From Leptolyngbyaceae cyanobacterium (GTDB lineage Bacteria; Cyanobacteriota; Cyanobacteriia; Cyanobacteriales; Coleofasciculaceae): a stretch of 32,000 nucleotides of DNA. The stretch lies in the NCBI GenBank assembly GCA_036703965.1, contig DATNQP010000442.1:2247-34246 (forward strand), read 5' to 3'. The position numbers and the translations under genes were made by a program. The notes beneath the pieces were generated by a model, which searched no databases, was not told the origin of the DNA, and saw only the letters and a program-made list of their open reading frames with translations. Shown here one piece after another: positions 2,708 through 32,000 of this stretch; position 1 is the first letter of the stretch, and each line of letters starts with the position of its first letter.

Positions 2708-2714
2708 TTGTGCC

Positions 2715-2838
2715 TGTCGAATAACACTTTATTTGTCGTCGTTAACAGATTCGTGTCGCTGTTAACACTTTAGTGTCGTCATTAACAAATTATTGTCATC
2801 TAATTCGTTCCAATGGCTGATAACAAATTATTGTCGTC
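2715..2838. repeat. CAST transposon end with five 20-bp TnsB-binding-type repeats
   Basis: Terminus TGTCGA at 2715. Units: ATAACACTTTATTTGTCGTC (2721-2740), GTTAACAGATTCGTGTCGCT (2741-2760), GTTAACACTTTAGTGTCGTC (2761-2780), ATTAACAAATTATTGTCATC (2781-2800) and, after an 18-bp gap, GATAACAAATTATTGTCGTC (2819-2838). From memory, the layout and consensus closely resemble the ShCAST end used as LE (GTGACAAATTATCTGTCGTC units). Confidence 0.85.
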
Positions 2839-2944
2839 CAGATGACCCCCAACCAGTAGAACGATATGACCGACACTAAAGTATGACCTCATCATAACTT
2901 GCTCCAACCACAAGGATGAGCTACTATCCATGCCTAGTCTTGTG

Positions 2945-2975
2945 TTGTAAGGCAGGCGCTCCTTTCAACCCTTCC
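2945..2975 (-). ncRNA. Delocalized short crRNA (truncated repeat plus 17-nt tRNA-Val homing guide)
   Basis: The minus strand reads GGAAGGGTTGAAAG then GAGCGCCTGCCTTACAA. The 10 nt GGGTTGAAAG equal the 3' end of the array repeat. The guide matches tRNA-Val 2656-2672 and diverges at the next base. This matches the published behaviour of V-K CAST homing crRNAs. Confidence 0.8.
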
Positions 2976-3072
2976 TAAAAATATTGTCAATTCTCAAATT
3001 TTTAAATCGTTTGCTTACATTAAGCAGCGTTAACATACCTTGCATGGCAAGCAGGCACAAGTCTTTTCTGGG

Positions 3073-3327
3073 CTTTCAACCCACCCTACTGCGGGAGGGT
3101 TGATGAAACTTTTGCAAATTCCGGTTCGACCGGAATCTGCAAATCTTTCAACCCACCCTACTGCAGTAGGGTGGGTTGATGAAACCCCTTTGTGCCTCGT
3201 TAATCAACCTCTGTGTCGTCTTTCAACCCACCCTACTGCGGGAGGGTTGATGAAACGTTCTCTAACTGACTTATAACGTTATCAGTCAGTCTTTCAACCC
3301 ACCCTACTGCGGGAGGGTTGATGAAAC
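3073..3327 (-). CRISPR. Type V-K CRISPR array, 4 repeats and 3 spacers, transcribed on the minus strand
   Basis: 37-nt repeats at 3073-3109, 3220-3256 and 3291-3327 (minus strand GTTTCATCAACCCTCCCGCAGTAGGGTGGGTTGAAAG), plus a 41-nt variant at 3145-3185. Spacers at 3110-3144 (35 nt), 3186-3219 (34 nt) and 3257-3290 (34 nt). The GGTTGAAAG 3' end of the repeat is as in ShCAST. Confidence 0.95.
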
Positions 3328-3400
3328 CGCGCCCGCTGAAACCCTTGTCTACACAAGCTGACAAATGCATTTTTGTCGGCTGATTTTAAATTACTCATTT

Positions 3401-3429
3401 CAGCTCTTTCCCAAGCCGGGAAAGAGCTG
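3401..3429. other. Perfect 12-bp stem / 5-nt loop hairpin between the tracrRNA and the CRISPR leader
   Basis: CAGCTCTTTCCC-AAGCC-GGGAAAGAGCTG. There is no flanking T-run on either strand, so it is not a canonical terminator. Function unknown. Confidence 0.6.
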
Positions 3430-3526
3430 ATGTGAATCTCTAAAATCAAGAGTGGACAAGAGTTTTGAACTACTGACGGCAACTCAGGGATTTTGCCCCC
3501 GCTTTGAGCCGTCAGAAAAATATTTA

Positions 3527-3836
3527 GGGAGGGTTCCCCCGAAGGGGATGAGTTCGGAACTATGCGGATTACCGCACCCTTGTAAACAAGGGCTAAGCTT
3601 TGGGAAAAATTACCTTCTCCCTCAGCCGTACCACATTTTGCTGGGAGCGCACCTATCCCGTACTATATACTTCAGTATTCAGACACGGAAATTTTCCCAT
3701 CGATGAAGAAGGTGTCATCGAGGCAGCATCCTGGGCGAGGTTCCAGGGTTCAGAAAGTAGGACTGCCTTCCGAGCAGTCAAACAGACCCTAAATTATCGC
3801 AGTACAGAGGCAATAAGCATGTACTAGTGGCGCTGT
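3527..3836 (-). ncRNA. Cas12k tracrRNA (ends approximate)
   Basis: The minus strand carries, in order, the blocks I recall from the ShCAST tracrRNA: AGCGCC, GCCTCTG, AGGGTCTGTTTGACTG, CTTTCTGAACCCTGG, GATGCTGC, GGATAGGTGCGCTCCCAGCAA and CCCCTTCGGGGGAACCCTCCC. The last block is complementary to the repeat segment GGGTGGGTT. It lies between cas12k and the array, as expected. Confidence 0.85.
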
Positions 3837-3840
3837 TAAT

Positions 3841-3869
3841 TGAATAACATTGTTTATTTATATTGTCAA
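3841..3869 (-). promoter_or_regulatory. Probable tracrRNA promoter
   Basis: On the minus strand: TTGACA (3869-3864), 17-nt spacer, TATTCA (3846-3841). This predicts a start near 3834, just before the conserved AGCGCC block. Confidence 0.45.
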
Positions 3870-3887
3870 GGTTCAGGAAAGGTTTAC

Positions 3888-5816
3888 CTAGCTAGCTGAT
3901 ACTTTACGGTTTTCATAGGCAGCTAGCACTAAATTCCTTGCTTTCTCTTGAGGGGTGTCTCCATGCGGTTGGTGTACTTTTTCTGTGGCAATCCCGGCTC
4001 TTTGGGCTTTAAGCTGAATAGACTCCGCTAACCTGTTGTAACTCCAACGGTGAATGCTGGCACGATAATCCTTGGCGTAGGAATCTTGAAGCTCTTTATA
4101 GCCCGGAAATTTTTGTTCGGCTCTGGCTCGCACTTCACTCTCAACCGCTTCCTCTATATTTCTCAAGTCAGGTAGGACAATACTGCTAGCTCGATACTGT
4201 GAAGCCACTTCCACAATCGCTTTTGCCAGCAGTCTATCCACATACTCCCCTTGTTTTGATTCTCCAAAGTTACAACGAGCACCTTTTTTTTGAGCGTTGT
4301 GGCGTTTGTGGCTATTGAGACATTCTTGCTCTCGCCAATGCTTGAGTTGCTCATACTGAGTCTTTTTCTTCTTAGTTTTCCCCTCTTTAATTGGCTTGCT
4401 CAGTAATTGCTTAACATCACGGTATGCCAAAACTGCGCCAGTTTCGATGTTGACCACCGCAACCGTTGCTGGTTTAGCTCGACCGAAGCTTACCCCAATG
4501 ACAATTGAGGGATTGCCCTTGTAGCCTGCTCGACTGGGACGAGAGAACCCCCGAAACGTTTGAAGTCGCTCTAGAGAAGATTCGTAATCTTTCAGCTTAG
4601 GACTCCGGCTACCTTTTGCTTTCATGCTGTCGATAATCTTTTGCGTTTTCGCAATTTTCTCTGCACGTACTTCCTCTGTTCCCTCAGCCGTCCACAAACG
4701 AGTTTCAACAGAGCAGTGAAGCAACAGCCGATGCACTTGCCAGGGTTCGCCTTCGCCTTCACTTTCTTGCCAAACTAGTCGAGCAGAACGTAAGCTTAAC
4801 AATCCAGCAGGAGCCTGCACCTTGTTGTGCGTAAAAATTTTGTAGTCTTCATCAAAGCGTTCAAACCAGTGTAGTTGGCGCTGGTCGCAAAAGACCTCAA
4901 AGGTATGCTGGCTAATGCCTTTGCCATTGAAGCTAACACAGATGCGCCCCTGTTCATTTCTCGACCATCGCAAGTCAGCGTTGGTTCCGTAAGATATCGA
5001 GAAGGGAACAGGGCTTTGTTTTCTAGTCAGACTGGCTTGCACTTGTCTCGATTTTTCTTCCTCAATGATTCGACCTTGCTCTTGTTCCACGGCTTCCACG
5101 CACTGTTGCTTAGATAAGTTTCTTCCTTTGGGAAGACGGCTTTTGAGTTGTTTTTTTAGGCGTTCGATTTGAATTTCCTTCTTGCGCCGCCGCTGTTTAT
5201 AGGCTTTGGGGTCTTCTTCTACTTCGCTAACCTGGCAGCGATTTTTCAATAAATAAGCAATAGCGCAGCGTTGCTGGGGAGCTTTAGCTTTATCGTAGGC
5301 TTGGAAGAGGCTGTTGAATAAGGCTTTTGAATTATCCTTGGGAGCTGGGTCTGGTTTTTCTTCTTGGTTGTGCTCTAACTCAGCCTTTTTCTTGGTGAGG
5401 ATTTTCGTAGCTTGAACACGTAGCGTTTCTAAACTACAACCGCTTTCTAGTTCTAGTTCCAAATCGCTTTTAAGCATATCGAGCCAGTGTTGTTTTCTCT
5501 GGAGACGAAACCTCCGTTTTTCTTGTAGAGCAAACCAGGACTTGTAAATGTCTTTGACTAAGTTCTCAGCAGCGTTCGCGAAACGTCCTGGCATATCCTG
5601 GAAGCGAAACTCACCTCTGAGGTTTTTGCAGAGTCCTTCGATGACTTGGGCTGTAATGTTTCCTTCTTCCAACCACTTATCAAAATCCGGGTGAGTATTA
5701 ATCTGGTTTAGCAGTTCATTGACCAAAAGTGTATGTTTCTCCACCATTAGGCTCCAGAGATGACGCAGCGAGTCTAATGGTGCTTTGAGTTGGCATTGAA
5801 CTGTAATGACGCTCAT
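3888..5816 (-). CDS. cas12k: Cas12k (type V-K effector)
   Basis: The 642-aa product is collinear with ShCas12k as I recall it. Examples: MSVITVQCQL.., HPDFDKWLEEG, LHWFERF, GEGEPWQVHRLLLHC, KPATVAVVNIETGAVLAYRDVKQLL, EQKFPGYKE, IHRWSYNRLAESIQLKAQRAGI. It is followed by the tracrRNA and array. Confidence 0.95.
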   Translation of the reverse strand: MSVITVQCQLKAPLDSLRHLWSLMVEKHTLLVNELLNQINTHPDFDKWLEEGNITAQVIEGLCKNLRGEFRFQDMPGRFANAAENLVKDIYKSWFALQEKRRFRLQRKQHWLDMLKSDLELELESGCSLETLRVQATKILTKKKAELEHNQEEKPDPAPKDNSKALFNSLFQAYDKAKAPQQRCAIAYLLKNRCQVSEVEEDPKAYKQRRRKKEIQIERLKKQLKSRLPKGRNLSKQQCVEAVEQEQGRIIEEEKSRQVQASLTRKQSPVPFSISYGTNADLRWSRNEQGRICVSFNGKGISQHTFEVFCDQRQLHWFERFDEDYKIFTHNKVQAPAGLLSLRSARLVWQESEGEGEPWQVHRLLLHCSVETRLWTAEGTEEVRAEKIAKTQKIIDSMKAKGSRSPKLKDYESSLERLQTFRGFSRPSRAGYKGNPSIVIGVSFGRAKPATVAVVNIETGAVLAYRDVKQLLSKPIKEGKTKKKKTQYEQLKHWREQECLNSHKRHNAQKKGARCNFGESKQGEYVDRLLAKAIVEVASQYRASSIVLPDLRNIEEAVESEVRARAEQKFPGYKELQDSYAKDYRASIHRWSYNRLAESIQLKAQRAGIATEKVHQPHGDTPQEKARNLVLAAYENRKVSAS

Positions 5817-5955
5817 GACTTGGGAAAACTAAGAGAGTAAAATTCGAGAAGGTGAATGAAAACAGGTGTACTACATAACCCCAGACAAAAACAGTTGTTC
5901 TAATTACAGGGAAAGCGATTGCCTCTGGCACCGCCCTTTGGGGCGATCGCGGTTT

Positions 5956-7797
5956 TTACTTGGGAGCGTGATAATCGATAAACCTCTTTGGATGGAACCT
6001 TTTACCATTGCCATTTTCCGGCAACGACTCTCCAGCCAAATCCTTACCCATCGCCCTATTAATTCTTGCTACCAGCGCCTGCGTTCTCGCTTCAAAAAAT
6101 GCGTCAAAATCATCGTTGTGCAAAGTTGTCGGCTCAATTAGGTGCGATCGCAAAATCTCATCAATCCTCTGCCTTGACATCCCTTGTTCTTCTAACTTTG
6201 CCAGATACTCTGATGGTGCTTTCCCCCCTAAAAACTTATTTGTCTTCGCCGTTAGGGGTGTCTTGTTAATAATGCTGTTGTAGCGTGAGCGGGGAATTCC
6301 CTGTCGCTTGCACCACTCTTGAGGGAAGATGTGGTGGTTCTCAATCTTCTCGTCGAAGTAACGAGCTGCCGTAATCGGTTCGCCACTGACAAAATCTAAT
6401 GCCCCATCACGTCTAAGTAAAGCAGCGATCGCTCTATAAGTCGCCCCACCAGAATTAACTAAACTCTGCAACCGTTCTGCCGACAGATGCGCTTCTTTTA
6501 CGGTTGATGGCACTTCGCCACCATTAAGCCATTGAGAAACTTCGATCAAATCCTTGGCGGCAGTCCCTTCCCGTGATCGCGAATAAATCCCCGATGCTGC
6601 CCCACAGTAAAACCACTGTTGTAAGAATTGCCGCACCCAGTCCAGCTTCGTTCCCTCTTGTAAAATCGCAAACAAAGGAGCCATGACCACAAGCTGCATC
6701 GCATAAGGAAGATCATTAGCATCGAAGATGGCTTGAGTATGGAGAAAACGAGCCACTTCCTCAAAGGCGGCACCGATCGGTTCCATCCAGTGCTGATATT
6801 GCGCCAACTCTAAACCCAGCACATCCTGACGATTACATGCTACTCCCGGTAGCCGTTCGGGATGACAACCCTGCTGTTGAGCTTGCACTCGTCGCGCATA
6901 GTTGGCCATCAAAGCGATCGCCTGTAAGAAATCTGTTGGCTTTAACAGGCGCAAAACTTGATGAGAACTAAAGCGCTTCTCTCTGACTATCCAGTCTGAG
7001 CGCAAGTCAAAATCAGTGGCAGCGAAAGAGGACGTTAACAAGTCAAATTGTGTCAGTTCGCACTGTCGTTTGTTGTTTTCCTCGAAAATGTAACAGACAG
7101 CTTCTTTAGGCAGTTCGGCTCTCAAGACGAACAATCCCATCTGATAATGCTCGAATTTCTTGATGACGGTTGCTTCAAATTCGTCAATCAAGGCTAACTT
7201 TTGTGGGTCGTAATGCCAGTATTTGCAGTATTGAGAGCGCCACTGGGGGAAATTGAAGACTTGGGAAATGGGAAATAAATCGAGTTCAAATTCTTTTTTC
7301 GGCGTCGAACAGTCCAGTACAGGTTGTTCGTGCCGATAGAGCTTTTTATCAACCGTTAAGCCCCAGATAGCATCTCGGCGGTCGGTGTGAGGGTAGTCGA
7401 GGGCTTGGGCAATGTCGATATAGTACCAGCGTTGCTCCGCTGGGTAGCGTTTGCCTCGATCGATCCGCACGGGTTGGTCGGATAGCAGGGACATGAACAG
7501 ACTGGTGAGGCGTTGCTGTCCGTCAAGAATCAAAGCTGTCGGCACGGGAGGATTAGCGAGGCTCAAACTTTCGACAAGGCGGGGCTTGAATTTGACATCC
7601 GGGTTGCCTTGCTGAAGGAGCATTACCGCTCCCACTGGGAAACCAAGGGAGACGCTAGCAATTACCCGTTCGATGCGCTCTTCATCCCAGCACCAGGAAC
7701 GCTGAAAGTCCACAAGCTGTATTTTGCCCTGTTGGATATCCCGTAGCAGGTCGAGCAGGGGTTCTTTGGTGATATCGAAGGTGGAAATGGAAGTCAT
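5956..7797 (-). CDS. GmrSD-family DUF262/DUF1524 protein (putative modification-dependent type IV restriction enzyme)
   Basis: The N-terminal DUF262 signature includes QRSWCWDEERIERVIASVSLGFPVG and LILDGQQRLTSL. The C-terminal His-Me/HNH-like DUF1524 signature includes ENHHIFPQEW...NSIINKTPLTAKTNKFLG. The track ORF extends to 7899; the ATG at 7797 (MTSISTFDIT) is the more likely start. Confidence 0.8.
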   Translation of the reverse strand: MTSISTFDITKEPLLDLLRDIQQGKIQLVDFQRSWCWDEERIERVIASVSLGFPVGAVMLLQQGNPDVKFKPRLVESLSLANPPVPTALILDGQQRLTSLFMSLLSDQPVRIDRGKRYPAEQRWYYIDIAQALDYPHTDRRDAIWGLTVDKKLYRHEQPVLDCSTPKKEFELDLFPISQVFNFPQWRSQYCKYWHYDPQKLALIDEFEATVIKKFEHYQMGLFVLRAELPKEAVCYIFEENNKRQCELTQFDLLTSSFAATDFDLRSDWIVREKRFSSHQVLRLLKPTDFLQAIALMANYARRVQAQQQGCHPERLPGVACNRQDVLGLELAQYQHWMEPIGAAFEEVARFLHTQAIFDANDLPYAMQLVVMAPLFAILQEGTKLDWVRQFLQQWFYCGAASGIYSRSREGTAAKDLIEVSQWLNGGEVPSTVKEAHLSAERLQSLVNSGGATYRAIAALLRRDGALDFVSGEPITAARYFDEKIENHHIFPQEWCKRQGIPRSRYNSIINKTPLTAKTNKFLGGKAPSEYLAKLEEQGMSRQRIDEILRSHLIEPTTLHNDDFDAFFEARTQALVARINRAMGKDLAGESLPENGNGKRFHPKRFIDYHAPK

Positions 7798-7929: not shown

Positions 7930-8238
7930 TTACTCTTGACTATTGGATACAGGGCATAAACGGGTTTTCAGTCCATCGGGAATTTCTTCAAAATGCTCGA
8001 TAAACAAATCTGCGAGTGCTAGATAGCGCAAGTGGTATCTAGTCGGTGGCGAAAAGTTTGTTCCTCGCTCAAACCAGCGTTGGACTGTGGCGAGGGAGCA
8101 TTGACAGATAGCTGCCATCTGCGATCGCGTTACGCTCCATTTGGCTTCAAAGGCACGGGGAGACATCCCTAACTGGCAGTTGGCGTAGAGACGAATCAAC
8201 TCCAGTTCTTGTTGTCCAAGGGGACGAGGATAGGTCAT
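7930..8238 (-). CDS. Small helix-turn-helix protein (putative transcriptional regulator)
   Basis: 102 aa. The segment TRSQMAAICQCSLATVQRWFERG looks like a classic HTH. Its ATG overlaps the stop of the upstream gene (ATGA at 8235-8238). Confidence 0.55.
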   Translation of the reverse strand: MTYPRPLGQQELELIRLYANCQLGMSPRAFEAKWSVTRSQMAAICQCSLATVQRWFERGTNFSPPTRYHLRYLALADLFIEHFEEIPDGLKTRLCPVSNSQE

Positions 8239-8837
8239 GAGTTTGTCTCCAAGGGCAGAGGTTCAAGGTGTTCTTCCCAACAGGTATCAGCGACACAGAA
8301 CTGAGCGCTGGGAGAAGAGGGAGCGAGGAGAATCAGGTATTTCCACCCCCACTGGCAGCGATGAGGAGCAAAGGCGTAGAACCGCCCAATGGCGATGCCC
8401 CTGTCGGTTTCGTCTGTATGAGATAACGGTTTCCATCGGAGGCGATCGCCATACAAAAACTTGGGCGTTTCGGCACTATCCGGGAAATTCGCTGGCAGGC
8501 TAATACCCGGAACTGAAGGATGGAAACTCAGCGAGGGTAAGCCAGAAAGTGAACTATCTAACTGGAAAGCTTGCAGGAGATTGGAGAGCTGTTGGCGATT
8601 CAGGTTGTTAGTGACTTGGCGGATGAGTAAGGCAGTGAGCGAGTCGAGTTCTCCTTGGCTAAGTGGGTTTGTTTGGCTGTTTTCGATGGGTTGGCTGAGG
8701 GACGTTATGCGTTCTGCGCCAAGTGCAGTGCCTATGGCATCGCGCAACTCCAACACGCCAAAGTCCTGTAAGGCTTGCAGGTAGGCAGGGTCAGGTTGAG
8801 TTTGGTGGAAGCGCTGTTGCTTTTCGGTTGGCTTCAT
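8235..8837 (-). CDS. Hypothetical protein
   Basis: The ORF is translationally coupled to the HTH gene. The track start at 8891 is a TTG; the first ATG is at 8837 (MKPTEKQQRF). I recognise no family. The C-terminal segment is Trp/Gly-rich (RLRWKPL..GIAIGRFYAF..QWGWKYLILL). Confidence 0.45.
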   Translation of the reverse strand: MKPTEKQQRFHQTQPDPAYLQALQDFGVLELRDAIGTALGAERITSLSQPIENSQTNPLSQGELDSLTALLIRQVTNNLNRQQLSNLLQAFQLDSSLSGLPSLSFHPSVPGISLPANFPDSAETPKFLYGDRLRWKPLSHTDETDRGIAIGRFYAFAPHRCQWGWKYLILLAPSSPSAQFCVADTCWEEHLEPLPLETNS

Positions 8838-8869
8838 AGGGATTTTTTCTGGGAGTACCCTGATTTTAG

Positions 8870-8969
8870 GCACATAGTCACAAAAAGGCAATAAGAGGGA
8901 CTATGTGCTTATTTTGCCTAGCGCTGATACAATCCAGAGATAATTAAGCACAAGGTTATTTGTGCTTAA
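8870..8969. promoter_or_regulatory. Divergent promoter region with reiterated operator-like half-sites (TGTGCTTA / TAAGCACA)
   Basis: Inverted repeat GCACATAGTC (8870-8879) / GACTATGTGC (8899-8908). Inverted repeat TTAAGCACA (8944-8952) / TGTGCTTAA (8961-8969). The 8-mer TGTGCTTA or its complement occurs three times within 70 bp, just upstream of the RHH gene. Confidence 0.55.
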
Positions 8970-8975
8970 CGAGGA

Positions 8976-9440
8976 TTGGCTGAGGATAAATACGTTTCTG
9001 TAAGGCTCTACTTACCAGACCAAGAATTTAAGCGGCGCTTTCAGGCGGCTTGCGCGATGCATGGGCGCAAGATGAGTGATGTGGCGGTAGAGCTGATTGA
9101 TGCGTGGCTAGGTGAAAATGAATCGCTAGAGCAGTTGCGACAAACAGAGACTGCTCGCCGCACTGATGCAGTGAGTCGCGTACCAACGATCGCGTCTTTG
9201 ATTGAAGAAACGCTAAGTAACCGCGACTGGGTACTTGGGAAGCTTGCGGCGGATGCTGAAATTTCTGTGGAACGGATTAATAAGTTACTAGAAGGAGAGC
9301 GCCCCTCTGATGTAGAACTCCAAAAGCTCGCCCTACGGTTGGTTAAACCCGATGGTGAAGCGTGGGAGGAGGGGGAACTGGTGGATATTCGACTGGCTGA
9401 GGATTTGAAGCGGAGACGGCAGCAGAAGCGATCGCGTTAG
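8976..9440 (+). CDS. Ribbon-helix-helix (CopG/Arc-like) plus XRE-like HTH DNA-binding protein
   Basis: TTG start. The N-terminal VSVRLYLPDQEFKRRFQAACAMHGRKMSDVAVELIDAWL fits an RHH beta-alpha-alpha pattern. The C-terminal LAADAEISVERINKLLEGERPSDVELQKLALRL fits an XRE-type HTH. Confidence 0.6.
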   Translation: MAEDKYVSVRLYLPDQEFKRRFQAACAMHGRKMSDVAVELIDAWLGENESLEQLRQTETARRTDAVSRVPTIASLIEETLSNRDWVLGKLAADAEISVERINKLLEGERPSDVELQKLALRLVKPDGEAWEEGELVDIRLAEDLKRRRQQKRSR

Positions 9441-9486
9441 GGTTCTATACGGAAATGTAATTTATGGGAAGATGCTGAGGTAGCCG

Positions 9487-9795
9487 ATGAGCATTGATGA
9501 TGAACTTCGCAAAACTCGCACAAATACCTATGTATCTGCCCTGGATATCCATATCCTTAATGCTGGCACTGATACTGAGCGCGATCGCCAAATTGCAGCA
9601 GGCTCGCTTGCATGGAATCTCCCCAAGTTAGAGTTTGGATTGGATGCGATCGCTAAGTACGTCACGGTTGATGAAGCGGGTGCTGACTTTATGAAGGGGT
9701 TTTACGCTTGGTCAGAGCGCATCCTCAAAGAGGGATACAGTATTCTCGAAAGATTCCAAATTCCTCCTCAACCGTTTGAGCATCCTTTGGTGTAG
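9487..9795 (+). CDS. Hypothetical protein
   Basis: 102-aa ORF, 46 nt downstream of the RHH gene on the same strand. No recognisable motif. Confidence 0.4.
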   Translation: MSIDDELRKTRTNTYVSALDIHILNAGTDTERDRQIAAGSLAWNLPKLEFGLDAIAKYVTVDEAGADFMKGFYAWSERILKEGYSILERFQIPPQPFEHPLV

Positions 9796-9902
9796 CAGGA
9801 ATTCGGTTCACTAGGCTAAAAGTAGGGTCACATCAGTTGCCTGAGAATAGACGGATGTTTGAGTTCCTCGTTGTGGCAAGCTAGGGTTGTGGTAAGTGAT
9901 GG

Positions 9903-10169
9903 TTATTCAGCTTTCTTGGGAAATTCACACTTGACGGTGATTTCCATGTTGCAGCCACCTTTAGCGTTGGCAATGTAGGGCACTCCAGCTTCGCTGCTGA
10001 TGTTGACTCCAAATTTCAGGGTGACTTCACTGACTTCCGCGATCGCGACATTCTTAAAGGTATTCAGGGTATAGGTGGTATATGCCCGAATAGTTTGTTC
10101 GATCGCTCGAAATGTTTGCGGGACTTGCTTGTGTGGATCGCCGATAAATACCCCACCTCGTTTTACAAT
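9903..10169 (-). pseudogene. trypco2 / CU044_2847-like small protein remnant lacking a start codon
   Basis: An 88-codon open frame not in the track: IVKRGGVFIGDPHKQVPQTFRAIEQTIRAYTTYTLNTFKNVAIAEVSEVTLKFGVNISSEAGVPYIANAKGGCNMEITVKCEFPKKAE. The C-terminal pattern (EV.L.FGV....EAG...A......N..ITV) matches what I recall for the trypco2 family. The frame is closed upstream by TAA TGA and has no ATG/GTG/TTG until the final 14 codons (first is an ATG). Confidence 0.35.
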
Positions 10170-10510
10170 TCATTACCCTTGGGCAGATTTCAGCAGCCTC
10201 ACTCGATATCGAAGGCGCGATGCGATCGCACAAGTGATAGAACCTGCCCAAATTTGGAGTAAGTTACCAAATCGTAAATACTGGTTAGATGCCAGCCACT
10301 TAAGCGGTTCATCCGACTTGGTTGTTCAGGGGAAAGCAGTAATTAAACTCTGCCGAAAATAGAAGCCGACTGTTTTTGACCGCTAGGACAACAAGTGTAA
10401 AGTGACTGAGGCGATCGCCTGCTCACACTTCATCAACTCTTTATCAATATGGGGTCACACCCCTCACGCCAAACACCATAATAAGACTAATAGATGCACC
10501 CTGATGATCG

Positions 10511-10758: not shown

Positions 10759-11340
10759 ATGGCTACCGATCGCGTTTCTCAGAGCGCACTCGATACTATC
10801 CTTGCGCTACAGATAACGGTAGCTTGGGCGGGTGAAGCATTGTCTGAACCTAAGCGCGTTGGCTGGTGGCGGACTGACCTTGTTGATGAGTTAGGGGGTG
10901 GGGACTTATTCAAGCGCCTCTTCCCTCATACGCATCGGTGGGCATCCCTTGAAGCAGTGCGTCAGGTGGCGATTCAGGTGGACAAGCAGGCAAGACTAGG
11001 AATGGCAAAGCCTGACGAGGTTCGCACGCTGTTCTTCTGGGGTTTTGCAGTGGATGAAAAGCTAGCAGAACGGTTCAACTTTCACAAACGCAGTGGTAAG
11101 GAACCAGTTGAAGTTCTCGACTTTCCTTTAGAACTCGACGAAGACTTTGTTAAGGTTGACTTTGAGGATGCACTCCGGATTCCCAACCACAACGTCAGTC
11201 ATAAGGTCGTTCCTGGGGGTCGCGAAATTGCGGAGGCGATGCCTGAAGCTTTAGAGTTAAGGGCTAAGAAGCTGGCGGCTGGACTTCTTCCTCTTGCAGA
11301 TGACTACCCGATGCCATTTTACCGCGTAGAGGGTAGATAA
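10759..11340 (+). CDS. brxE: BREX type 6 protein BrxE
   Basis: 193-aa first gene of the operon, preceded by a purine-rich GAGGAGGAAGAGGA. Called from its position directly upstream of brxA in a locus that also has brxD and brxHI, which is the type 6 layout of Goldfarb et al. 2015. I do not hold an independent sequence signature for BrxE. Confidence 0.6.
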   Translation: MATDRVSQSALDTILALQITVAWAGEALSEPKRVGWWRTDLVDELGGGDLFKRLFPHTHRWASLEAVRQVAIQVDKQARLGMAKPDEVRTLFFWGFAVDEKLAERFNFHKRSGKEPVEVLDFPLELDEDFVKVDFEDALRIPNHNVSHKVVPGGREIAEAMPEALELRAKKLAAGLLPLADDYPMPFYRVEGR

Positions 11341-11345
11341 CCTGG

Positions 11346-12814: not shown

Positions 12815-12851
12815 ACCACTATTCTATTGATTTCGTAAGGAAGCTGAGGAA

Positions 12852-16481: not shown

Positions 16482-16506
16482 CCCGATCGCCATTACTTTT
16501 GATTTG

Positions 16507-20523: not shown

Positions 20524-20525
20524 AT

Positions 20526-21656: not shown

Positions 21657-21717
21657 CTCTTCAACTTAAACTCAAATACTATTCTTCAACATTTAACTAG
21701 CCTTTCCAAGTCAAGCC

Positions 21718-24615: not shown

Positions 24616-24646
24616 AGAAGGCAGAGCGGCAAAACAACTAGAAATT

Positions 24647-25966
24647 ATGGGCATGAGTGAGCGAGACCTCGATCATATTTTTGAGCGTTTGCGATCGGGG
24701 GTAGTCCCCGAACGGGGTTTGGAAACATTTGCTGTTGGAATTGAGAAACAACGAGCAGAAATTCACCGACAACTCAAACTCGCTACTAATGGAGAAGGGG
24801 TATTTAAGTTCCTCCGGGGCGGTTACGGCTGCGGTAAAACCTTCATGTGCCGACTTGCGCTCAGTGATGCCCAAGCTCAAGGATTTGCTACCAGCTTTGT
24901 CGTCGTTTCCGAGAATGACCTCTACTTCCACAAGTTTGATGATGTTTACCGCAAAGTTGTGCAAGAACTTGCCACCAGTTCCTGTCCCAGAGGCGCTCTA
25001 GCAGATATTCTCGACCGTTGGATTGCCAAAGTTGAAGATGCCCTAATTGCCGCAGGCGCTGATGAAGACAGTGCTGAGTTTGATGACAAAGTGGCAAAGC
25101 GCATGGAAGAAGAACTCGCCTCTTTGACTGGAGGAAAAGCGCCTGAAGATATGGCTCGCGTTCTTCGTACTATTTTTGACCTCAAGCAAAAAGGTCAATT
25201 TGCAGAAGCCAGCGCTCTACTCTCCTGGCTCTCCGGCAGTGAAAATGTCGCCGCCAGCGCTAAGAAAGTCGCCGGAATTAAAGGGGATATCGGCAGCCGC
25301 GAAGCTCTAGACTATCTCCAAGGCATTGTCGAAATCATCAAAGCGGCTGGCTATGAAGGCTTAGTGATTGTGATCGATGAAGTCGAGACAATCCTGCGAA
25401 TGCGCCGAGATATCCGCGAGAAATCCCTCAACGGGATTCGCCAAATCTGCGATGCTGCCGATCGCTACAAGGGACTGCTCTGGATTTTCACGGGAACCCC
25501 AGACTTTTTCGACACTAAGCGCGGTGTTGCCGGACTACAGCCTCTGCACGATCGCATCCAGTTCTTAACACACGGCGGTTTCGCTAACCCGCGCCAATCG
25601 CAGCTAGAACTCAAACCATTTGATGCCCCACGTCTCAAAGAAGTTGCGCTCAAGTTATTGGACAGATATCCTACCACTGACCCAGTTCGGCTAGCGAGTA
25701 AACTCAGTTCAAAATTTATCGAGCGACTGATTGCTAAAGTCACGGCAGGTTTTAAGGGTGATGTAGGCGTCGTGCCACGGCAGTTCCTACGCCATTTTGT
25801 TGATGTCCTCGATCTGGCTGACGAAAACGATGATTTCGATCCGATGAAAGCTGAGGGGTTTGAGCCAGACAAGCTCACTGAAGACGAGCGGCGCATTTGG
25901 GAAGGTCGCGAACCCTTCGATCCAGAACCCGAAGATATTAAAGGTTACGAAGCCGTCGTATTCTAA
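24647..25966 (+). CDS. brxD: BREX ATPase BrxD
   Basis: 439 aa. Walker A GGYGCGKTF and Walker B LVIVIDEVE. It sits between pglZ and the Lhr-like helicase, as in BREX types 2 and 6. Confidence 0.8.
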   Translation: MGMSERDLDHIFERLRSGVVPERGLETFAVGIEKQRAEIHRQLKLATNGEGVFKFLRGGYGCGKTFMCRLALSDAQAQGFATSFVVVSENDLYFHKFDDVYRKVVQELATSSCPRGALADILDRWIAKVEDALIAAGADEDSAEFDDKVAKRMEEELASLTGGKAPEDMARVLRTIFDLKQKGQFAEASALLSWLSGSENVAASAKKVAGIKGDIGSREALDYLQGIVEIIKAAGYEGLVIVIDEVETILRMRRDIREKSLNGIRQICDAADRYKGLLWIFTGTPDFFDTKRGVAGLQPLHDRIQFLTHGGFANPRQSQLELKPFDAPRLKEVALKLLDRYPTTDPVRLASKLSSKFIERLIAKVTAGFKGDVGVVPRQFLRHFVDVLDLADENDDFDPMKAEGFEPDKLTEDERRIWEGREPFDPEPEDIKGYEAVVF

Positions 25967-25968
25967 CC

Positions 25969-28077
25969 ATGACATCTGCCTTTGCTCGGTTCCCCCCGCG
26001 CCTCCAGGAAGCGATCGTCTCCCGCTTGGGATGGTCGTCACTACGTCTTGTTCAAGAGTTTGCAAGCCATGCGCTGTTAGATGGGAAGAATGCGGTCATT
26101 TTAGCCCCTACTGCTGGAGGGAAAACGGAGGCAGCAATCTTTCCCCTGCTAGCAAGGTTAATGGAGAAGGAACCAGAGGGAGTCGGACTCATCTACATCG
26201 CTCCAATTAAGGCACTGTTGAACAACCAGGCAGAACGCTTGGCTACCTACACGGAAATGGTAGGACTCAGGCGTTTTGTATGGCATGGAGACATTAAAGA
26301 CTCCCAGAAGCGTTCTTTTATCAAAGAACCCGCTCAGGTTTTAATGACTACGCCGGAGTCGCTGGAGGTGATGCTGCTCTCTCCAAAAGTCCCCCACACC
26401 GAACTTTTTGGAGACGTTCGCGCCCTAATTATTGATGAAATTCACGCACTGGCTGGCACAGACCGAGGCGCACACCTGATGTCTGTTTTTGAACGACTGA
26501 TTCGTTATACCAAGAATGACATTCAGCGCATCGGACTGAGTGCCACGGTTGGGAACCCCATCGATATTCTCCGCTGGCTTCAGGGAACCTCACGGCGCGA
26601 TGGGTGTGTGGTAGACCCGCCAAAAGTTCCTTCAAAAAAAGACTTGCGAATTTACCTGCGGGACACTGTGGGTGCGATCGCTGGTGATGCGAGCAAGATG
26701 GCGTTTGGTCGAAAAAGTCTGTTCTTCTGCCAAAGCCGTTCGCTGACCGAAAGTATCGCCGAGCGTATTCGCGATCGCGGAACGGACGTATTTGTACATC
26801 ACAGTTCCGTATCCTTTGAAGAACGCGCTGCGGCAGAGGAGCGCTTTCACAGAGGCACCAATGTCAGCATTATCTGCACTTCCACGCTAGAACTGGGAAT
26901 TGATGTCGGCGACCTCGACCTTGTATTTCAGGCTAATGCGCCTTCTACTGTCTCATCATTTCTACAGCGCTTGGGTCGAACGGGTCGCCGCGAAGGTCAG
27001 CAGGCTAACACTACATTCTTCTGCGAGAACCTTGAAGTTGTACTGCAAGCGATCGCGATTATCGAGCTAGCCAGAAAAGGTTGGGTAGAATCAGTTCCCC
27101 CTCAAAATCGAGTGTGGTCAGTACTCGTACACCAGCTTTTTGCGCTCACACTACAGTTCGGTGCAATTAGCCCGGAGCGCTGCTGGGAGCAATTATCCGT
27201 TGTCCCTGATTTTTCAGGTATCAACTCGACTGAATTTGAGAGACTGCTCGAACACCTGATTGCAGAGAACTTCCTCTTCATCTCAGGGGGTCTGTTATCA
27301 ATGGGAGAAAAGGCTGAAAAAATTTTCGGTCGCAAGAATTTCATGGAACTCTACGCCGTCTTCAGCAGCCCACTACTCTACAAGGTCATGACTGAAGCTG
27401 GCTACGTCGTCGGCTCTTTAGAGCAGACGTTTGTGGATAAACTCGTAACAGAAATGAGTTCCTTCCTCCTTGGCGGTAGAGCTTGGACGGTCATTCACAT
27501 CAATTACAAAGAGCGCATCGTCCGTGTTGTTCCAGCACCGGGAGGTAAGAAGCCAACCTGGGGTGGCTTTGCCCCACAGCTATTGAGCTTCGAGATTTGT
27601 CAGCAAATTGCCAATATCCTTAAATCTGACAATCCCATCCCTTATATCGACACAACGGCACAAACAGCTCTTGACGAATACAGAACAGACCTCGGTTCAT
27701 TACTCAGCCGTTCCGATCGCAGTATTAAAATAGAGCCTGACCGCGCACTGTGGTGGACGTTTGCAGGTGGACAAATTAATCACACCCTCAAGTACGGAAT
27801 TCAGTTCCAGGAAGATTGGAAAATCGTTTGTGATAACTTCGGACTAAAAATAGAGGGAAGCAAACTCAACCCGAAATCTCTGTATGCAGCGATCGCGAAA
27901 ATGAGTACTGATGACTTCTGGAGCGATTCGTCGTCAAAGCACTTCATTAGGGCACAACTACCAGAGTATCGGCTTTCCAAGTTCCAGATAGCGCTGCCAG
28001 ACGACTATTGTTCGGAGATGATTAGCGACTACCTACTAGACATTCCAGGGGCAGTCCGATTTTTACAGAGAGCCTAA
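25969..28077 (+). CDS. brxHI: BREX Lhr-like DEAH helicase BrxHI
   Basis: 702 aa. Helicase motifs I (APTAGGKTEAA), II (LIIDEIH), III (SAT) and VI (QRLGRTGRR). The start is 2 nt after the brxD stop. Confidence 0.85.
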   Translation: MTSAFARFPPRLQEAIVSRLGWSSLRLVQEFASHALLDGKNAVILAPTAGGKTEAAIFPLLARLMEKEPEGVGLIYIAPIKALLNNQAERLATYTEMVGLRRFVWHGDIKDSQKRSFIKEPAQVLMTTPESLEVMLLSPKVPHTELFGDVRALIIDEIHALAGTDRGAHLMSVFERLIRYTKNDIQRIGLSATVGNPIDILRWLQGTSRRDGCVVDPPKVPSKKDLRIYLRDTVGAIAGDASKMAFGRKSLFFCQSRSLTESIAERIRDRGTDVFVHHSSVSFEERAAAEERFHRGTNVSIICTSTLELGIDVGDLDLVFQANAPSTVSSFLQRLGRTGRREGQQANTTFFCENLEVVLQAIAIIELARKGWVESVPPQNRVWSVLVHQLFALTLQFGAISPERCWEQLSVVPDFSGINSTEFERLLEHLIAENFLFISGGLLSMGEKAEKIFGRKNFMELYAVFSSPLLYKVMTEAGYVVGSLEQTFVDKLVTEMSSFLLGGRAWTVIHINYKERIVRVVPAPGGKKPTWGGFAPQLLSFEICQQIANILKSDNPIPYIDTTAQTALDEYRTDLGSLLSRSDRSIKIEPDRALWWTFAGGQINHTLKYGIQFQEDWKIVCDNFGLKIEGSKLNPKSLYAAIAKMSTDDFWSDSSSKHFIRAQLPEYRLSKFQIALPDDYCSEMISDYLLDIPGAVRFLQRA

Positions 28078-28164
28078 ATAGTCCTGAAGTTTAATAGTGC
28101 AGCCTTATTAGACACTCTCGCCTGATAGTATGACTAACATTCCATCCAAAACTCCTCTGCTAAC

Positions 28165-28593
28165 ATGGCATACTGGCTGTTTCAAGGCAATCCCAAATAC
28201 TACCGCGTCCTTGATGGCATCCGAGACTTTGAACAGATGCCTTGGTTGGTGACTCGCTACGGAAAAGACATTGCTCCTGGTGATGGTGTTCTGGTGTGGG
28301 TTTCTGGGAAAGAAGCAGGGATTTATGCGATCGCAAAAGTCACAGAACCCGCTCAGGTTATCACCAAGCTACCAGACGGCAAATACTGGGCAGACCCCAA
28401 CCGCACTACAGGGAAACAGCAAGCCATCATTGAATTTACCAGCAAACTTCTAGACAAGCCCCTGCTGAAAACAGATTTAGTCAAAGACCCTATTCTCAAC
28501 AACTTGCTAGTCATTCGCGCTCCCAATAGCACCAACTTCAAAATCACAGCAGAACAGTGGAAACGGGTACAGGAGTTATTAGATGTTGAATAG
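28165..28593 (+). CDS. Stand-alone EVE (PUA-like) domain protein
   Basis: 142 aa. The N-terminal segment reads YWLFQGNPKYY...W...GDGVLVWVSGKEAGIYAIAKVTEPA, which is the typical EVE signature. It is on the same strand, 87 nt after brxHI. Confidence 0.75.
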   Translation: MAYWLFQGNPKYYRVLDGIRDFEQMPWLVTRYGKDIAPGDGVLVWVSGKEAGIYAIAKVTEPAQVITKLPDGKYWADPNRTTGKQQAIIEFTSKLLDKPLLKTDLVKDPILNNLLVIRAPNSTNFKITAEQWKRVQELLDVE

Positions 28594-28753
28594 GCTGAGG
28601 TTGTGCGATCGCATAAATGGAAGGGAGCGATCGCACTTAACCAAGTGCCATTCGGTGTTAGACCGATATGTGCGGTTTAGTTAATAGTTATGCTGCCTCA
28701 CCTTATGGGTAGGGACGCGATCGCTTCCCCTTTTGAGACGCTTGCAGTTACCT

Positions 28754-31700
28754 TTATTGCTTGTGAGCAACTAACTCAGGATAGACAGGAATGAAAGGCA
28801 GTCTTTCTTTGCTTAATGAAGCGCGAACAGCCAATGTCCTTGCTAAGGGAAATATGTGATCGCGATAAATGTCTATTTCAGGGAGTTGGATCAGCTTTTT
28901 CAAAACTTCTGAAGTACCAATCTTACCCAAAGCCTCTGCCACCTGCCTTCTCACCTCACTGTCTAGGTCGTTGAGGGCAGCGATTAATACCTCCACCGCT
29001 TGAGCATTGCCAATCTTACCCAAAGCCTCTGCCGCCACCTCTCTCACCTCACTGTCTGAGTCGTTGAGGGCAGCAATTAGGGCGTTCACCGCTTGAGCAT
29101 TACCAATCTTACCCAAAGCCTCTGCCGCCTGCCTTCTCACGTTACTTTTGGAGTCGTTGAGAGCATAGATTAAGGCTGCCACTGCTTGAGCATTGCCCAT
29201 CTTACCCAAAGCATTTGCCGCCACCTCTCTCACGAAACTGTCTGAGTCATTGAGGGTAGCGATTAATGCCTCCACTGCTTGAGCATTGCCCATCTCACCC
29301 AAAGCATTTGCCGCTGTCGCTCTCCCGAAACTGTCTGAGTCATTGAGGGTAGCGATTAATGCCTCCACCGCTTGAGCATTGCCCATCTCACCCAAAACCG
29401 ATGCTGCCCGACTTCTCACGAAACTGTCTGAGTCGTTGAGGGTAGCGATTAATGCCTCTACCGCTTGAGCATTGCCAATCTTACCCAAAGCCCATGCTGC
29501 CCGACTTCTCACGTCACTGTCGGAGTCGTTGAGGGCAGCGATTAAGGGTTCCACCGCTTGAGCATTGCCAATCTCACCCAAAACCCATGCCGTCCGCCCT
29601 CTCACGTCACAGTCAAAGTGGTTGAGGGCAGCGATTAGGGCGTCCACCGCTTGAGCATTGCCAATCTTACCCAAAGCCTCTGCCGCCACCTCTCTCACGT
29701 TACAGTCAAAGTGGTTGAGGGCAGCGATTAATGCCTCCACCGCTTGAGCATTGTCCATCTCACCCAAAACCCATACTGCCGTACTTCTCACGTCACAGTC
29801 AAAGTGGTTGAGGGCAGCGATTAGGGCGTCCACCGCTTGAGCATTGCCAATCTTACCCAAAGCCTCTGCCGCCTGCCTTCTCACGTTACTTTTGGAGTCG
29901 TTGAGGGCAGCGATTAGGGCGTCCACCGCTTGAGCATTGCCAATCTTACCCAAAGCCCATGCTGCCCGACTTCTCACGTCACTTTTGGAGTGGTTGAGAG
30001 ATTTTTGCAACCTCTGGGACATCAGAGAGTTTACTTGACCGCTCGCTACAACAATTGATTTGATGAAACTAGCACGTAGGTAAGACTGCCAAAACTTGTA
30101 GATTCTGTCGATTATATCTACCATCAACGGGTGATAGTTTTCTTGACATTCTGCAATGCATTGACCTGCTAATAACAACAGCGTCGAGAAGATATCATCC
30201 TTTTGGGCAGTGATGGCTTGGAGCAATGGGACTGGATTTTCCATCAATCCCGCCATTAAACTCAACGTTTCATGCCACTCATATTCCCAGAAATGTTCTC
30301 TTGCTAAAGCAATGCTATCTCTCGCTCTGTTCAAATAAGAAGCTGTAAAATATTCCTGAAACGTCCGGTGCAGAAACAGGTATTGGTCGCTATCGTTATG
30401 TAACGTTTGTAAAATCCCATCCTGTTTAGACAGTTCGGAAATCAGGTGAGAAGCATTCAGATTGTGGAAATCGGTTGAAGCGTTTCCACTGCGTAAGTAT
30501 TCATCAATCGTTTTGCGGAGTTCGCGCAGAGTAAAAATCTCTTTGCCATCACAACTAAATTGATAGGCAAGTTCCTCAAGTAACTCAGTTTTGGCATCTA
30601 TCCAGGCATCATTTAATTCTGGATTGCGATTCTTGCTCCACTTGCCCAGCATATAGCGTACTGCTTGCTCATACACCTGGCAGCGTCGGGCTGGTAGCGT
30701 TAATCCTTGTTCTTGATACAAGCTGCAAATCAACGACAACAGCAAAGGATTCTGCGCTAATCCGCGAATCTGGGGTTTATTCCGCAATTCTCGAATTAAG
30801 GACGAAGCGGAAACGGTATCATTATTCAGACATTCCGCCGCATTTCTAAACCAAGTTTCAATATACTGCTCTGTCTGCTTCTGACTGAAGGGAACAATTT
30901 CCACTTCTTTCACCCCCTGCACAAATGCCCCACTATAGCCAACAATCCGCGAGGTGCAGATGATGGGGCAGGGAGGTTTTCGTTGGGCAAATCGGTTCAG
31001 CTTCTCAAACAAACGCTGCCGTTGCCGATGTTCTGTGGGTACTTCATCAAGCGCATCCAACAGCAGGAGACACTTACCAACTTTTAACTTCTCCCGCAAC
31101 AGTTCCATCACTTGGGTTGCCGTTTCTGAATAGTCCCGTTGAATCAGCACTGGAATAGCATCGATGATTTCTTCGGGTGTTTCGGCTAAATCCGATAGTC
31201 GCAGAAATAGCGGAAAAACCACGTCTTCGAGTTTTTTAGTGTTATTTTTCAAACTCTGCCGTTCTTCTTGGGCAGTTAAGCAAGCTTCCCTCCTCAACAG
31301 CGTAGATTTTCCCATCCCTGGATCGGCAAGCACCATGATTCGCTGATGCCGTTTCTTTGCCTCTTTCCAATCCACTTGGCTTGGCTGGGATTCCTCCAAT
31401 CCCTTGAGAGCATAAGCCCGCTTGAGTTCCGCGTCTGATTCCGCATAGCCCCAAGTGGTTTCAACAGCATGAGTATATTTCCTCTCCAGCGTCACCTGGA
31501 TGGGAATGTATTGGTCTTTCAGAATAATCGGTTGCTCTGGGATATGAAGTAGCTTGTCGTACTTGAAGTTGTTTTCAATTTCTTTGAGAAAGCGACAGAC
31601 GGCATTTTTTTGAGCCTGTTCGCTTAAAGACGGGTCAGGGGCAACAAGATTTTGCCTTTGCTGCCATTGAGGAAATTTTTCTTCCCACAACCATTTGAAT

Positions 31701-31951
31701 GCTTGCTCCCAAGGACTCTTACCTTTACGCTGTCGCCCTCGCTTCGATTGGCTGATGGGACATTCATCTTTCGCCAAAACCTGACAGATTTTCTTCAACT
31801 CATCTTGGAGTTTTTGCGGCTTATCCTCTGCCTGTCTACTCCAAGCGATAAATCCTACCAACACAGAATTTTCTTTATTCGCTTTCACCTCATCAAAGCG
31901 ACTGAGGAACACAGTCCGGGTATCGCCCGTGAAATTGTAGTGCGTCGCCAT
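28754..31951 (-). CDS. NACHT-family STAND NTPase with 12 C-terminal PBS-lyase-type HEAT repeats (bacterial NLR-like)
   Basis: Walker A LADPGMGKSTLL and Walker B CLLLLDALDEV, then a helical region, then 12 x 31-aa units with consensus D..VR..AA.ALGKIGNAQAV.ALIAALN. The frame stays open upstream of the ATG at 31951 to the window edge (..NSSANLAEQQRQFLEE-M), so the true N-terminus may lie outside the window. Confidence 0.85.
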   Translation of the reverse strand: MATHYNFTGDTRTVFLSRFDEVKANKENSVLVGFIAWSRQAEDKPQKLQDELKKICQVLAKDECPISQSKRGRQRKGKSPWEQAFKWLWEEKFPQWQQRQNLVAPDPSLSEQAQKNAVCRFLKEIENNFKYDKLLHIPEQPIILKDQYIPIQVTLERKYTHAVETTWGYAESDAELKRAYALKGLEESQPSQVDWKEAKKRHQRIMVLADPGMGKSTLLRREACLTAQEERQSLKNNTKKLEDVVFPLFLRLSDLAETPEEIIDAIPVLIQRDYSETATQVMELLREKLKVGKCLLLLDALDEVPTEHRQRQRLFEKLNRFAQRKPPCPIICTSRIVGYSGAFVQGVKEVEIVPFSQKQTEQYIETWFRNAAECLNNDTVSASSLIRELRNKPQIRGLAQNPLLLSLICSLYQEQGLTLPARRCQVYEQAVRYMLGKWSKNRNPELNDAWIDAKTELLEELAYQFSCDGKEIFTLRELRKTIDEYLRSGNASTDFHNLNASHLISELSKQDGILQTLHNDSDQYLFLHRTFQEYFTASYLNRARDSIALAREHFWEYEWHETLSLMAGLMENPVPLLQAITAQKDDIFSTLLLLAGQCIAECQENYHPLMVDIIDRIYKFWQSYLRASFIKSIVVASGQVNSLMSQRLQKSLNHSKSDVRSRAAWALGKIGNAQAVDALIAALNDSKSNVRRQAAEALGKIGNAQAVDALIAALNHFDCDVRSTAVWVLGEMDNAQAVEALIAALNHFDCNVREVAAEALGKIGNAQAVDALIAALNHFDCDVRGRTAWVLGEIGNAQAVEPLIAALNDSDSDVRSRAAWALGKIGNAQAVEALIATLNDSDSFVRSRAASVLGEMGNAQAVEALIATLNDSDSFGRATAANALGEMGNAQAVEALIATLNDSDSFVREVAANALGKMGNAQAVAALIYALNDSKSNVRRQAAEALGKIGNAQAVNALIAALNDSDSEVREVAAEALGKIGNAQAVEVLIAALNDLDSEVRRQVAEALGKIGTSEVLKKLIQLPEIDIYRDHIFPLARTLAVRASLSKERLPFIPVYPELVAHKQ
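28918..29998. repeat. 93-bp tandem DNA repeat array (about 11.6 units) encoding the HEAT repeats
   Basis: The string TGAGCATTGCCAATCTTACCCAAAGCC recurs with a 93-nt period (for example at 29001 and 29094). Long stretches are identical between units. Confidence 0.9.
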
Positions 31952-32000
31952 TTCTTCTAAGAACTGGCGCTGCTGTTCTGCAAGATTGGCTGAAGAATTC

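Follow-up and report, generated by a model that had tools for sequence, protein, structure and literature searches.

A large type V-K CRISPR-associated transposon that probably carries a BREX type 6 operon behind a cyanobacterial tRNA-Val gene

The DNA analysed here (the window) is a stretch of 32,000 nucleotides, bases 2247–34246 of the 35,236-bp contig C442 (DATNQP010000442.1), from the draft genome of a Leptolyngbyaceae cyanobacterium (genome G000; 5.2 Mb in 718 contigs, N50 of 9 kb, 79.9% complete). It contains the left end, the guides and the cas12k gene of a type V-K CRISPR-associated transposon (CAST), and, further along, a type 6 operon of the bacteriophage exclusion system (BREX-6). 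These features are probably parts of one V-K CAST of at least ~35 kb, which inserted fairly recently behind tRNA-Val(TAC) and holds BREX-6 inside it. In support of this reading, held with moderate confidence, the guides, the ends, cas12k and all of the BREX genes are uninterrupted, and the DNA just upstream of brxE is 93–95% identical to the cargo of another V-K CAST.

Catalogued V-K CASTs have the order tRNA, left end, 17-nt anchor spacer, array, trans-activating CRISPR RNA (tracrRNA), cas12k, cargo, tniQ-tnsC-tnsB and right end (Ziemann et al. 2023, PMC9938897). The left boundary follows this order, with a putative tracrRNA region, and its features are as follows.

Positions 2636–2707, plus strand: tRNA-Val(TAC), the homing site (ARAGORN and Rfam).
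Positions 2653–2655 and 2656–2672, plus strand: protospacer-adjacent motif (PAM) GTA and 17-nt anchor protospacer, an exact match to the anchor spacer.
Positions 2710–2714, plus strand: 5-bp target duplication GTGCC, with a second copy beyond the right end on contig C78.
Positions 2715–2838, plus strand: left end of the TGTCGA type, with five TnsB sites at 2722, 2742, 2762, 2782 and 2820.
Positions 2945–2961 and 2962–2971, minus strand: delocalised 17-nt anchor spacer and truncated repeat.
Positions 3073–3327, minus strand: CRISPR array of 4 repeats and 3 spacers.
Positions 3328–3887, minus strand: putative tracrRNA region, assigned from its position, ends not mapped.
Positions 3888–5816, minus strand: cas12k, 642 aa, uninterrupted (PADLOC Cas12k, E = 4e-244).

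The first base of the left end is 60 nt downstream of the final base of the PAM; V-K CASTs use a GTN PAM, with a published PAM-to-end range of 46–82 nt (PMC9938897). Over 186 bp the left end is 99% identical to the left end found at tRNA-Val(TAC) in the genome G042. The putative tracrRNA region gave no match to Rfam models and is 79% identical over 201 nt to its counterpart in a second V-K locus of the source genome, on contig C253.

Two spacers of the array are palindromic and resemble other DNA of the source genome. The one closest to the left end (3110–3144) matches C9:6441–6473 and C9:15000–15032 at 32 of 33 nt; these sites lie on either side of an 8.6-kb unit that includes integrase-like and replication-like genes, and neither has a directly adjacent GTN PAM. 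The other (3257–3290) resembles, at 20 of 22 nt and with a weak match (E = 0.34), a palindrome at C56:5045–5066, which lies inside a parB-like gene adjoining parA and is possibly a parS site.

Transposase genes were sought over the whole genome with the Pfam profiles TniQ, TniB and Mu-transpos_C, and ends with a matrix built from the element's own TnsB sites. No tnsB, tnsC or tniQ was matched on C442, where the sole TniB match (E = 1e-4) is the NACHT ATPase of the cargo. The only cluster of TnsB sites on the entire 35,236-bp contig is that at 2722–2838, and the best lone site (17.5 bits at 6229) is oriented as a left end. An earlier note, made from the letters of the window alone, had reported neither these genes nor an inverted end between 2715 and the window edge, and both searches bear it out; no cryptic end lies in the window, and no run of housekeeping genes begins before the contig ends. 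C442 stops 990 bp past the window, within the left end of a repeated insertion sequence (IS). This IS left end is common to five contig ends (C442 and four others), and related full copies, 1.33 kb in length, are of the IS4 type and encode a DDE_Tnp_1 transposase. Because the contig breaks inside a multi-copy IS, it is the assembly that stops there and not the element. In V-K CASTs, tnsB, tnsC and tniQ lie at the right end, with the cargo between cas12k and tniQ (PMC9938897), and this layout together with the assembly break accounts for the lack of tns genes in the window.

A cognate right end is present on contig C78. The terminal 26 bp are identical on C442 and, as an inverted copy, on C78, and occur at these two places only in the assembly. 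The C78 end has five TnsB sites that face inward, and beyond it comes GTGCC, the pentamer that precedes the left end and has a genome frequency of 0.0008. Next to it is an inward-facing, stop-free 5′ part of tnsB, 371 codons to the contig edge, with rve and helix-turn-helix (HTH) matches. The search beyond the window for tns genes and a second end, which the earlier note had proposed, thus recovered a right end, the duplication and the start of tnsB. The two contigs are linked by sequence identity and the matching duplication, not by a continuous contig. Independent support comes from a sibling element in the genome G086 (contig C67), which pairs a Cas12k 84% identical to that of the window with a TnsB 76% identical to that of C78. 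This sibling has the same end type, the same block of regulator, HTH and DUF262 genes beside cas12k, and a size of at least 35 kb. In a control element, Allocoleopsis franciscana PCC 7113_(2), the two sides of the target duplication did not match, which indicates that duplications are not always retained in older elements. One further candidate end, on C582, was rejected as a CHAT-like coding region.

The earlier note had also recognised a full eight-gene BREX-6 operon, and this assignment is confirmed by PADLOC matches for all eight genes and by bit scores well above the NCBIfam type-6 cut-offs (BrxE, 227 against 80; PglX, 2113 against 900; PglZ, 1060 against 400). The operon (10759–28077, plus strand) has the eight genes of BREX type 6 in canonical order (NF033448, NF033455, NF033443), and differs from that type in an extra gene between pglX and pglZ.

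Positions 10759–11340, plus strand: brxE.
Positions 11346–12176, plus strand: brxA.
Positions 12107–12814, plus strand: brxB.
Positions 12852–16481, plus strand: brxC.
Positions 16504–20523, plus strand: pglX.
Positions 20526–21656, plus strand: DUF4365-like gene, 376 aa.
Positions 21718–24615, plus strand: pglZ.
Positions 24647–25966, plus strand: brxD.
Positions 25969–28077, plus strand: brxHI.

The genes are uninterrupted and full length relative to other BREX-6 operons, and the expected motifs are present: Walker A in BrxC and BrxD, GSGHF and NPPY in PglX, and DEIH in BrxHI. From its sequence, the eight-gene BREX-6 is real and looks intact. The embedded gene had been called nuclease-like; the gene is there, and its only match is a sub-threshold one to DUF4365. 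At this pglX–pglZ junction, unrelated inserts are found in three further cyanobacterial BREX-6 operons. As a separate observation, an EVE-like scrap (10220–10297), 72% identical to positions 28325–28402 of the full EVE gene downstream, precedes the operon; BREX-6 is thereby bracketed by EVE-related DNA, and both EVE copies start at a highly iterated palindrome (HIP1) site. An EVE gene flanks BREX-6 in G083 as well.

By the known mechanism of V-K CASTs, Cas12k would bind the tRNA gene through the 17-nt anchor guide, TniQ and TnsC would recruit TnsB, and TnsB would join both ends at ~60 bp from the PAM and so carry along all the DNA between them, with BREX-6. The rest of tnsB, with tnsC and tniQ, would lie in the unassembled gap. 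The cargo is a mosaic with turnover, in which the fixed regulator/HTH/DUF262 block is followed by an eroded older block and then by BREX-6, an EVE gene and a NACHT-HEAT gene. Judging by their families, these last three probably benefit the element through phage defence.

Several observations weigh against a single, recent and complete insertion. No contig joins C442 to C78. An attempt to link contigs across the IS through its target site failed, as the flanks give only TT/AA, and the four contigs that start with the right end of the IS (C81, C395, C319 and C675) contain no tns genes. The tnsC, tniQ and 3′ tnsB of the C78 clade were not found in the assembly even at an E value of 0.01; this absence is expected for a gap in an 80% complete bin, but a real deletion would also be compatible with it. 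Decay is common in the source genome, as seen in several decayed V-K loci (C125, C635, C490, C253 and C583). Finally, no empty site was found: the gene downstream of tRNA-Val(TAC) differs in each of 16 relatives, and citrate synthase, which lies downstream of the C78 right end, adjoins that tRNA in none of them. Between the C78 duplication and citrate synthase are 8 nt and the 3′ tip of a gene. A full copy of this gene (99% identity over 134 bp) is on C125, in a decayed CAST at tRNA-Thr; the gene faces citrate synthase in G005, and a homolog occupies the same place in G003. The odd flank could be explained by an older insertion or by a later rearrangement. The comparison of the tRNA-Val locus that the earlier note had suggested therefore yielded a hot spot, with end remnants in many of the 16 flanks, but not an empty site.

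A possible, if unlikely, alternative is that a single insertion with both ends is no longer autonomous, with the 3′ part of tnsB, tnsC or tniQ deleted or interrupted, and is now fixed or moved only by proteins supplied in trans. The absence of a cognate tnsC and tniQ from the assembly would agree with such a loss, as would the IS in the cargo, the two 5-kb deletions described below, the decay of the other V-K loci, and the genome G042, which at 92% completeness has a near-identical left end and no TnsB match. In contrast, no flaw is seen in either end, in the duplication, in the anchor guide, in cas12k or in tnsB as far as it is assembled. Moreover, the assembly lacks 20% of the genome, and the starting edge of C78 falls within tnsB.

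It is improbable that the two ends derive from one insertion and were later separated by an IS- or repeat-mediated rearrangement, which would leave the distal cargo non-collinear and the true size undefined. The C78 flank is the point in its favour, since the gene whose tip it contains has its native place opposite citrate synthase in two relatives and was not seen behind tRNA-Val, together with an IS of at least five copies at the contig end. However, at a hot spot with end remnants in many relatives the old flank need not be conserved, and end-to-end tandem junctions such as that known in this clade from Coleofasciculus sp. S288 would explain the TGTC after the duplication; nothing positive indicates a break. 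The S288 junction itself (L078:5795–5850), in the TnsB clade of C78, consists of two ends back to back with five T between them, and may be a tandem insertion or a circle-type junction.

It is highly unlikely that the C78 tnsB continues into the tnsC-tniQ of contig C583, so that the C78 end would belong to a small element at tRNA-Val(CAC) and the window element would have no known right end. C583 does start with a tnsB tail, tnsC and tniQ, the sole V-K pair in the assembly. In quick trees with SH-aLRT support only, however, the TnsB and TnsC topologies are congruent and place the C583 TnsC in another clade: all eight relatives in the C78 TnsB clade (support 98) have TnsC proteins 42–44% identical to that of C583 and form a TnsC clade (support 100) that excludes it. 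The C583 left end is also of a different type (TGTACA) with a different flank, and the C78 duplication matches the window; C583 was rejected as the continuation of C78. The tns genes on C615, C191 and C296 were likewise rejected, as belonging to other Tn7/Tn5053-like elements (those of C615 are 25–28% identical to V-K proteins). Scarcely credible is a decayed element that ended after cas12k, with BREX-6 and the NACHT gene as ordinary chromosome or an independent island: BREX-6 does occur without a CAST in G432 and G274, and a chromosomal paralog of the NACHT gene is on C167, but the matching right end is present elsewhere, housekeeping genes are absent from 2715 to the end of the contig, and the DNA up to 10285 is demonstrably CAST cargo.

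Taken as one V-K CAST, the element comprises 30,276 bp on C442 and 1,491 bp on C78, and reaches its minimum of ~35 kb once ~1.2 kb for the remainder of the IS and 2.2 kb for the missing tns DNA (its length in G086) are added. It was compared with 21 V-K sizes in the catalogue, a sample that gives a rough percentile: they have a median of 19.1 kb, with four that reach 30 kb and a largest, from Geitlerinema PCC 7407, of 59.7 kb (PMC9938897). The catalogue gives the V-K CAST of Nostoc punctiforme a span of 27.9 kb. Elements of relatives are ~32 kb (contig C4 of G313) and ~55 kb (G062), and Tn7-like elements in general have median lengths of 14–29 kb, with a longest of 140 kb (PMC8649781). The size is in the upper tail of V-K CASTs, large but not exceptional. 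A cargo described earlier as unusually large is thus well above the median, but surpassed among the 21.

Restriction-modification systems have been described as frequent V-K cargo, and BREX, detected by BrxC, has been found in 40 Tn7-like transposons, cyanobacterial ones included (Benler et al. 2021, PMC8649781); neither the BREX type nor V-K membership is specified for those 40 elements. The premise that Tn7-like elements carry defence cargo is therefore already published for BREX. Our literature search found no paper naming BREX-6 in a CAST. The earlier note had seen a notable vehicle in BREX-6 mobilised to a tRNA site by an RNA-guided transposon; the V-K CAST with BREX-6 stands, with its right end and tnsB on C78, but the novelty is reduced by the published BREX cargo. 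The element is large but an ordinary V-K CAST. Its value is as a clear natural case of an RNA-guided transposon with over 30 kb inside it, 17 kb of which form a single operon, and it adds to the evidence that the rare BREX type 6 of cyanobacteria is carried by CASTs; it extends the published pattern of BREX in Tn7-like elements and overturns nothing.

The rarity of BREX-6 is seen in the genomes surveyed: brxE occurs in 6 of 400 other genomes of the order, and the type-6 pglZ in 2 of 400 of the phylum. Three brxE loci, in one family (G325, G383 and G275), adjoin TniQ, with BREX-6 brxE/brxA directly beside it. Those of G325 (L116:285–8524) and G383 also have the cas6-8-7-5 genes of a type I-B CAST, and that of G325 is at tRNA-Val(TAC); tRNA-Val is a known target of the I-B2 CAST TnsD (PMC11837452). 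These loci end at contig edges, and G325 lacks the type-6 pglZ, so they may be remnants. Cargo of this kind also occurs outside CASTs, a comparison that the earlier note had raised: BREX-6 is a bare island beside tRNA-Gly on the closed chromosome of G432, with no TniQ, and lies on a 446-kb replicon in G274.

The closest catalogued element is PCC 7113_(2) (PMC9938897); the two V-K elements of G012, a genome of the same family as the source cyanobacterium, coincide with the catalogue coordinates of Allocoleopsis franciscana PCC 7113. PCC 7113_(2) has a Cas12k 81% and a DUF262 protein 93% identical to those of the window, and no CvkR/Arc regulator is catalogued for it. It differs in size (19.8 kb, against at least ~35 kb), in its site (tRNA-Pro, against tRNA-Val) and in its TnsB clade (61% identity), and the BREX-6 cargo is particular to the window element. 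In the G086 sibling, a BREX operon (BrxC scoring over the NCBIfam cut-off) occurs together with a large STAND-like gene; this BREX is of a type other than 6 (23–27% identity), and a BrxL-like last gene suggests that it is type 1.

The cargo outside BREX-6 and the block beside cas12k consists of the following.

Positions 9474–10285: deletion remnant of a 12-kb cargo block, with a fused 102-aa open reading frame (ORF), a Trypco1 fragment (9903–10169, minus strand) and the EVE-like scrap.
Positions 28165–28593, plus strand: stand-alone EVE gene (Pfam EVE, E = 5e-17).
Positions 28754–31951, minus strand: gene for a NACHT NTPase with HEAT repeats, whose frame stays open until slightly beyond the window.

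Three pieces of the remnant are 93–95% identical to V-K CAST cargo on C4 of G313 and are joined across deletions of ~5.4 and ~5.6 kb. The intact 12-kb block there contains a radical SAM cluster, Trypco1, a WD40 repeat gene and a CHAT-AAA gene. This identity indicates that CASTs of the family share cargo and that such cargo is eroded in situ. Pfam supports the EVE reader-like gene and both the NACHT and HEAT parts of the NTPase as first described; the supposed trypco2 remnant, in contrast, is a Trypco1 fragment (PF19493, E = 3e-18), and Trypco2 (PF19631) has no match in the genome at an E value of 0.1. Defence-type coding DNA makes up 79% of positions 2715–32000, and the eight BREX genes 61% of the DNA beyond cas12k. 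The description of the cargo as almost entirely defence genes holds for coverage, but BREX-6 is the sole recognised whole system, the rest being assigned by family resemblance. By HIP1 density and GC content, the cargo is not distinguishable from the rest of the genome, and look-ups with exact proteins found no other assembly of the locus. The chromosomal paralog of the NACHT gene on C167 is 63% identical and has the same upstream gene. The HEAT region (28813–30042) is a tandem array with a 93-bp period and ~12 units. HIP1 sites, which average 0.9 per kb over the genome, are absent from the 3.2 kb of the NACHT gene.

The block beside cas12k is a conserved part of its neighbourhood.

Positions 5956–7797, minus strand: DUF262 gene, GmrSD/BrxU-like, frame open to 7899.
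Positions 7930–8238 and 8235–8891, minus strand: 102-aa HTH-like gene and an ORF, in tandem with the DUF262 gene.
Positions 8976–9440, plus strand: divergent ribbon-helix-helix and HTH gene, a candidate regulator (Pfam ParG/RHH).

A small divergent regulator beside cas12k is usual but not universal, and the catalogue includes V-K elements without one (PMC9938897). Here, no CvkR, Arc_1 or Arc_2 regulator was found directly beside cas12k; the DUF262 block occupies that place, and the candidate regulator is 3.2 kb from cas12k. It adjoins the same block in G086, G062, G012 and G313. The DUF262 gene is next to cas12k in all six members of a fully supported Cas12k clade, with 79–93% identity in the other five, a conservation on par with that of Cas12k; the two small genes are also beside cas12k in five relatives (89–93% and 69–85% identity). 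More distant copies of the block are beside cas12k in other clades and on C490 of the source genome, and DUF262 homologs on C296 and C191 lie in or near other Tn7-like elements. Among the best 29 DUF262 loci in other genomes (one locus per genome, with related genomes not independent), 15 have cas12k within 1.5 kb, and two more have TniQ within that distance.

The N-terminal domain matches Pfam GmrSD_N (E = 2e-22), with QR and DGQQR motifs that are invariant or nearly so. The C-terminal part has no Pfam GmrSD_C match; it contains an invariant HHxFP and N511/N520, and its predicted fold matches BrxU and HNH domains. BrxU, a type IV restriction enzyme of the GmrSD family (PDB IDs: 7p9k, 7p9m), is the best match by profile and, over the full length of the predicted structure (pLDDT 87), by fold (Foldseek E = 2e-13); the match extends to a C-terminal part that is HNH-like. 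Unlike BrxU, to which it is 16% identical, the protein is tied to cas12k, is encoded 3 kb from BREX on the opposite strand, and is also present in siblings without BREX. As modelled, it resembles a GmrSD-type nuclease, yet behaves as a fixed part of the cas12k neighbourhood. The earlier proposal of a GmrSD-like type IV restriction gene is therefore right as to the domain, but such a constant neighbour is not random cargo. Our literature search found no paper on a link between cas12k and a BrxU-like gene, and this linkage is the only lead with some novelty and the more useful by-product of the analysis. A doubtful extension is that the three-gene block, which ends in the BrxU-like gene, is no defence cargo and instead a functional component in a subgroup of V-K CASTs and in other Tn7-like elements of cyanobacteria, at the usual place of CvkR, serving control, target immunity or exclusion of rivals, and that BREX-6 has passed between V-K and I-B CASTs that share tRNA-Val.

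Further CAST-related loci were noted. At least seven relatives have a decayed or whole CAST left end directly behind tRNA-Val(TAC) (L043–L062), and in G012 and G018 the gene pair upstream of this tRNA is also split by inversion. In the source genome, a further V-K element, small and from a different clade, lies at tRNA-Val(CAC) on C583 (L016:1–7214). Its right end is unassembled, and it contains tnsC and tniQ, a gene of the PLD type, a fusion of kinase and helicase, and a cas12k/TnpB-like scrap. Decayed left ends are at tRNA-Thr(CGT) on C125 (L018:3075–5700) and at tRNA-Leu(TAG) on C635 (L017:2841–3050). A cas12k-tracr-array locus with no clear left end is at tRNA-Gly(CCC) on C253 (L020:1–1833), and C490 has a frameshifted cas12k with the DUF262 block. 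Large ORFs and a cysteine desulfurase-like gene at C191:21039–31610, near a Tn7-like element with two TniQ/TnsD genes, look like defence cargo. Finally, CALRKB020000020.1 (L089), labelled as a Rhizobium metagenome-assembled genome, has a V-K-like tnsB-tnsC-tniQ with a TGTCGA end, which may be a binning error or a transfer outside cyanobacteria.

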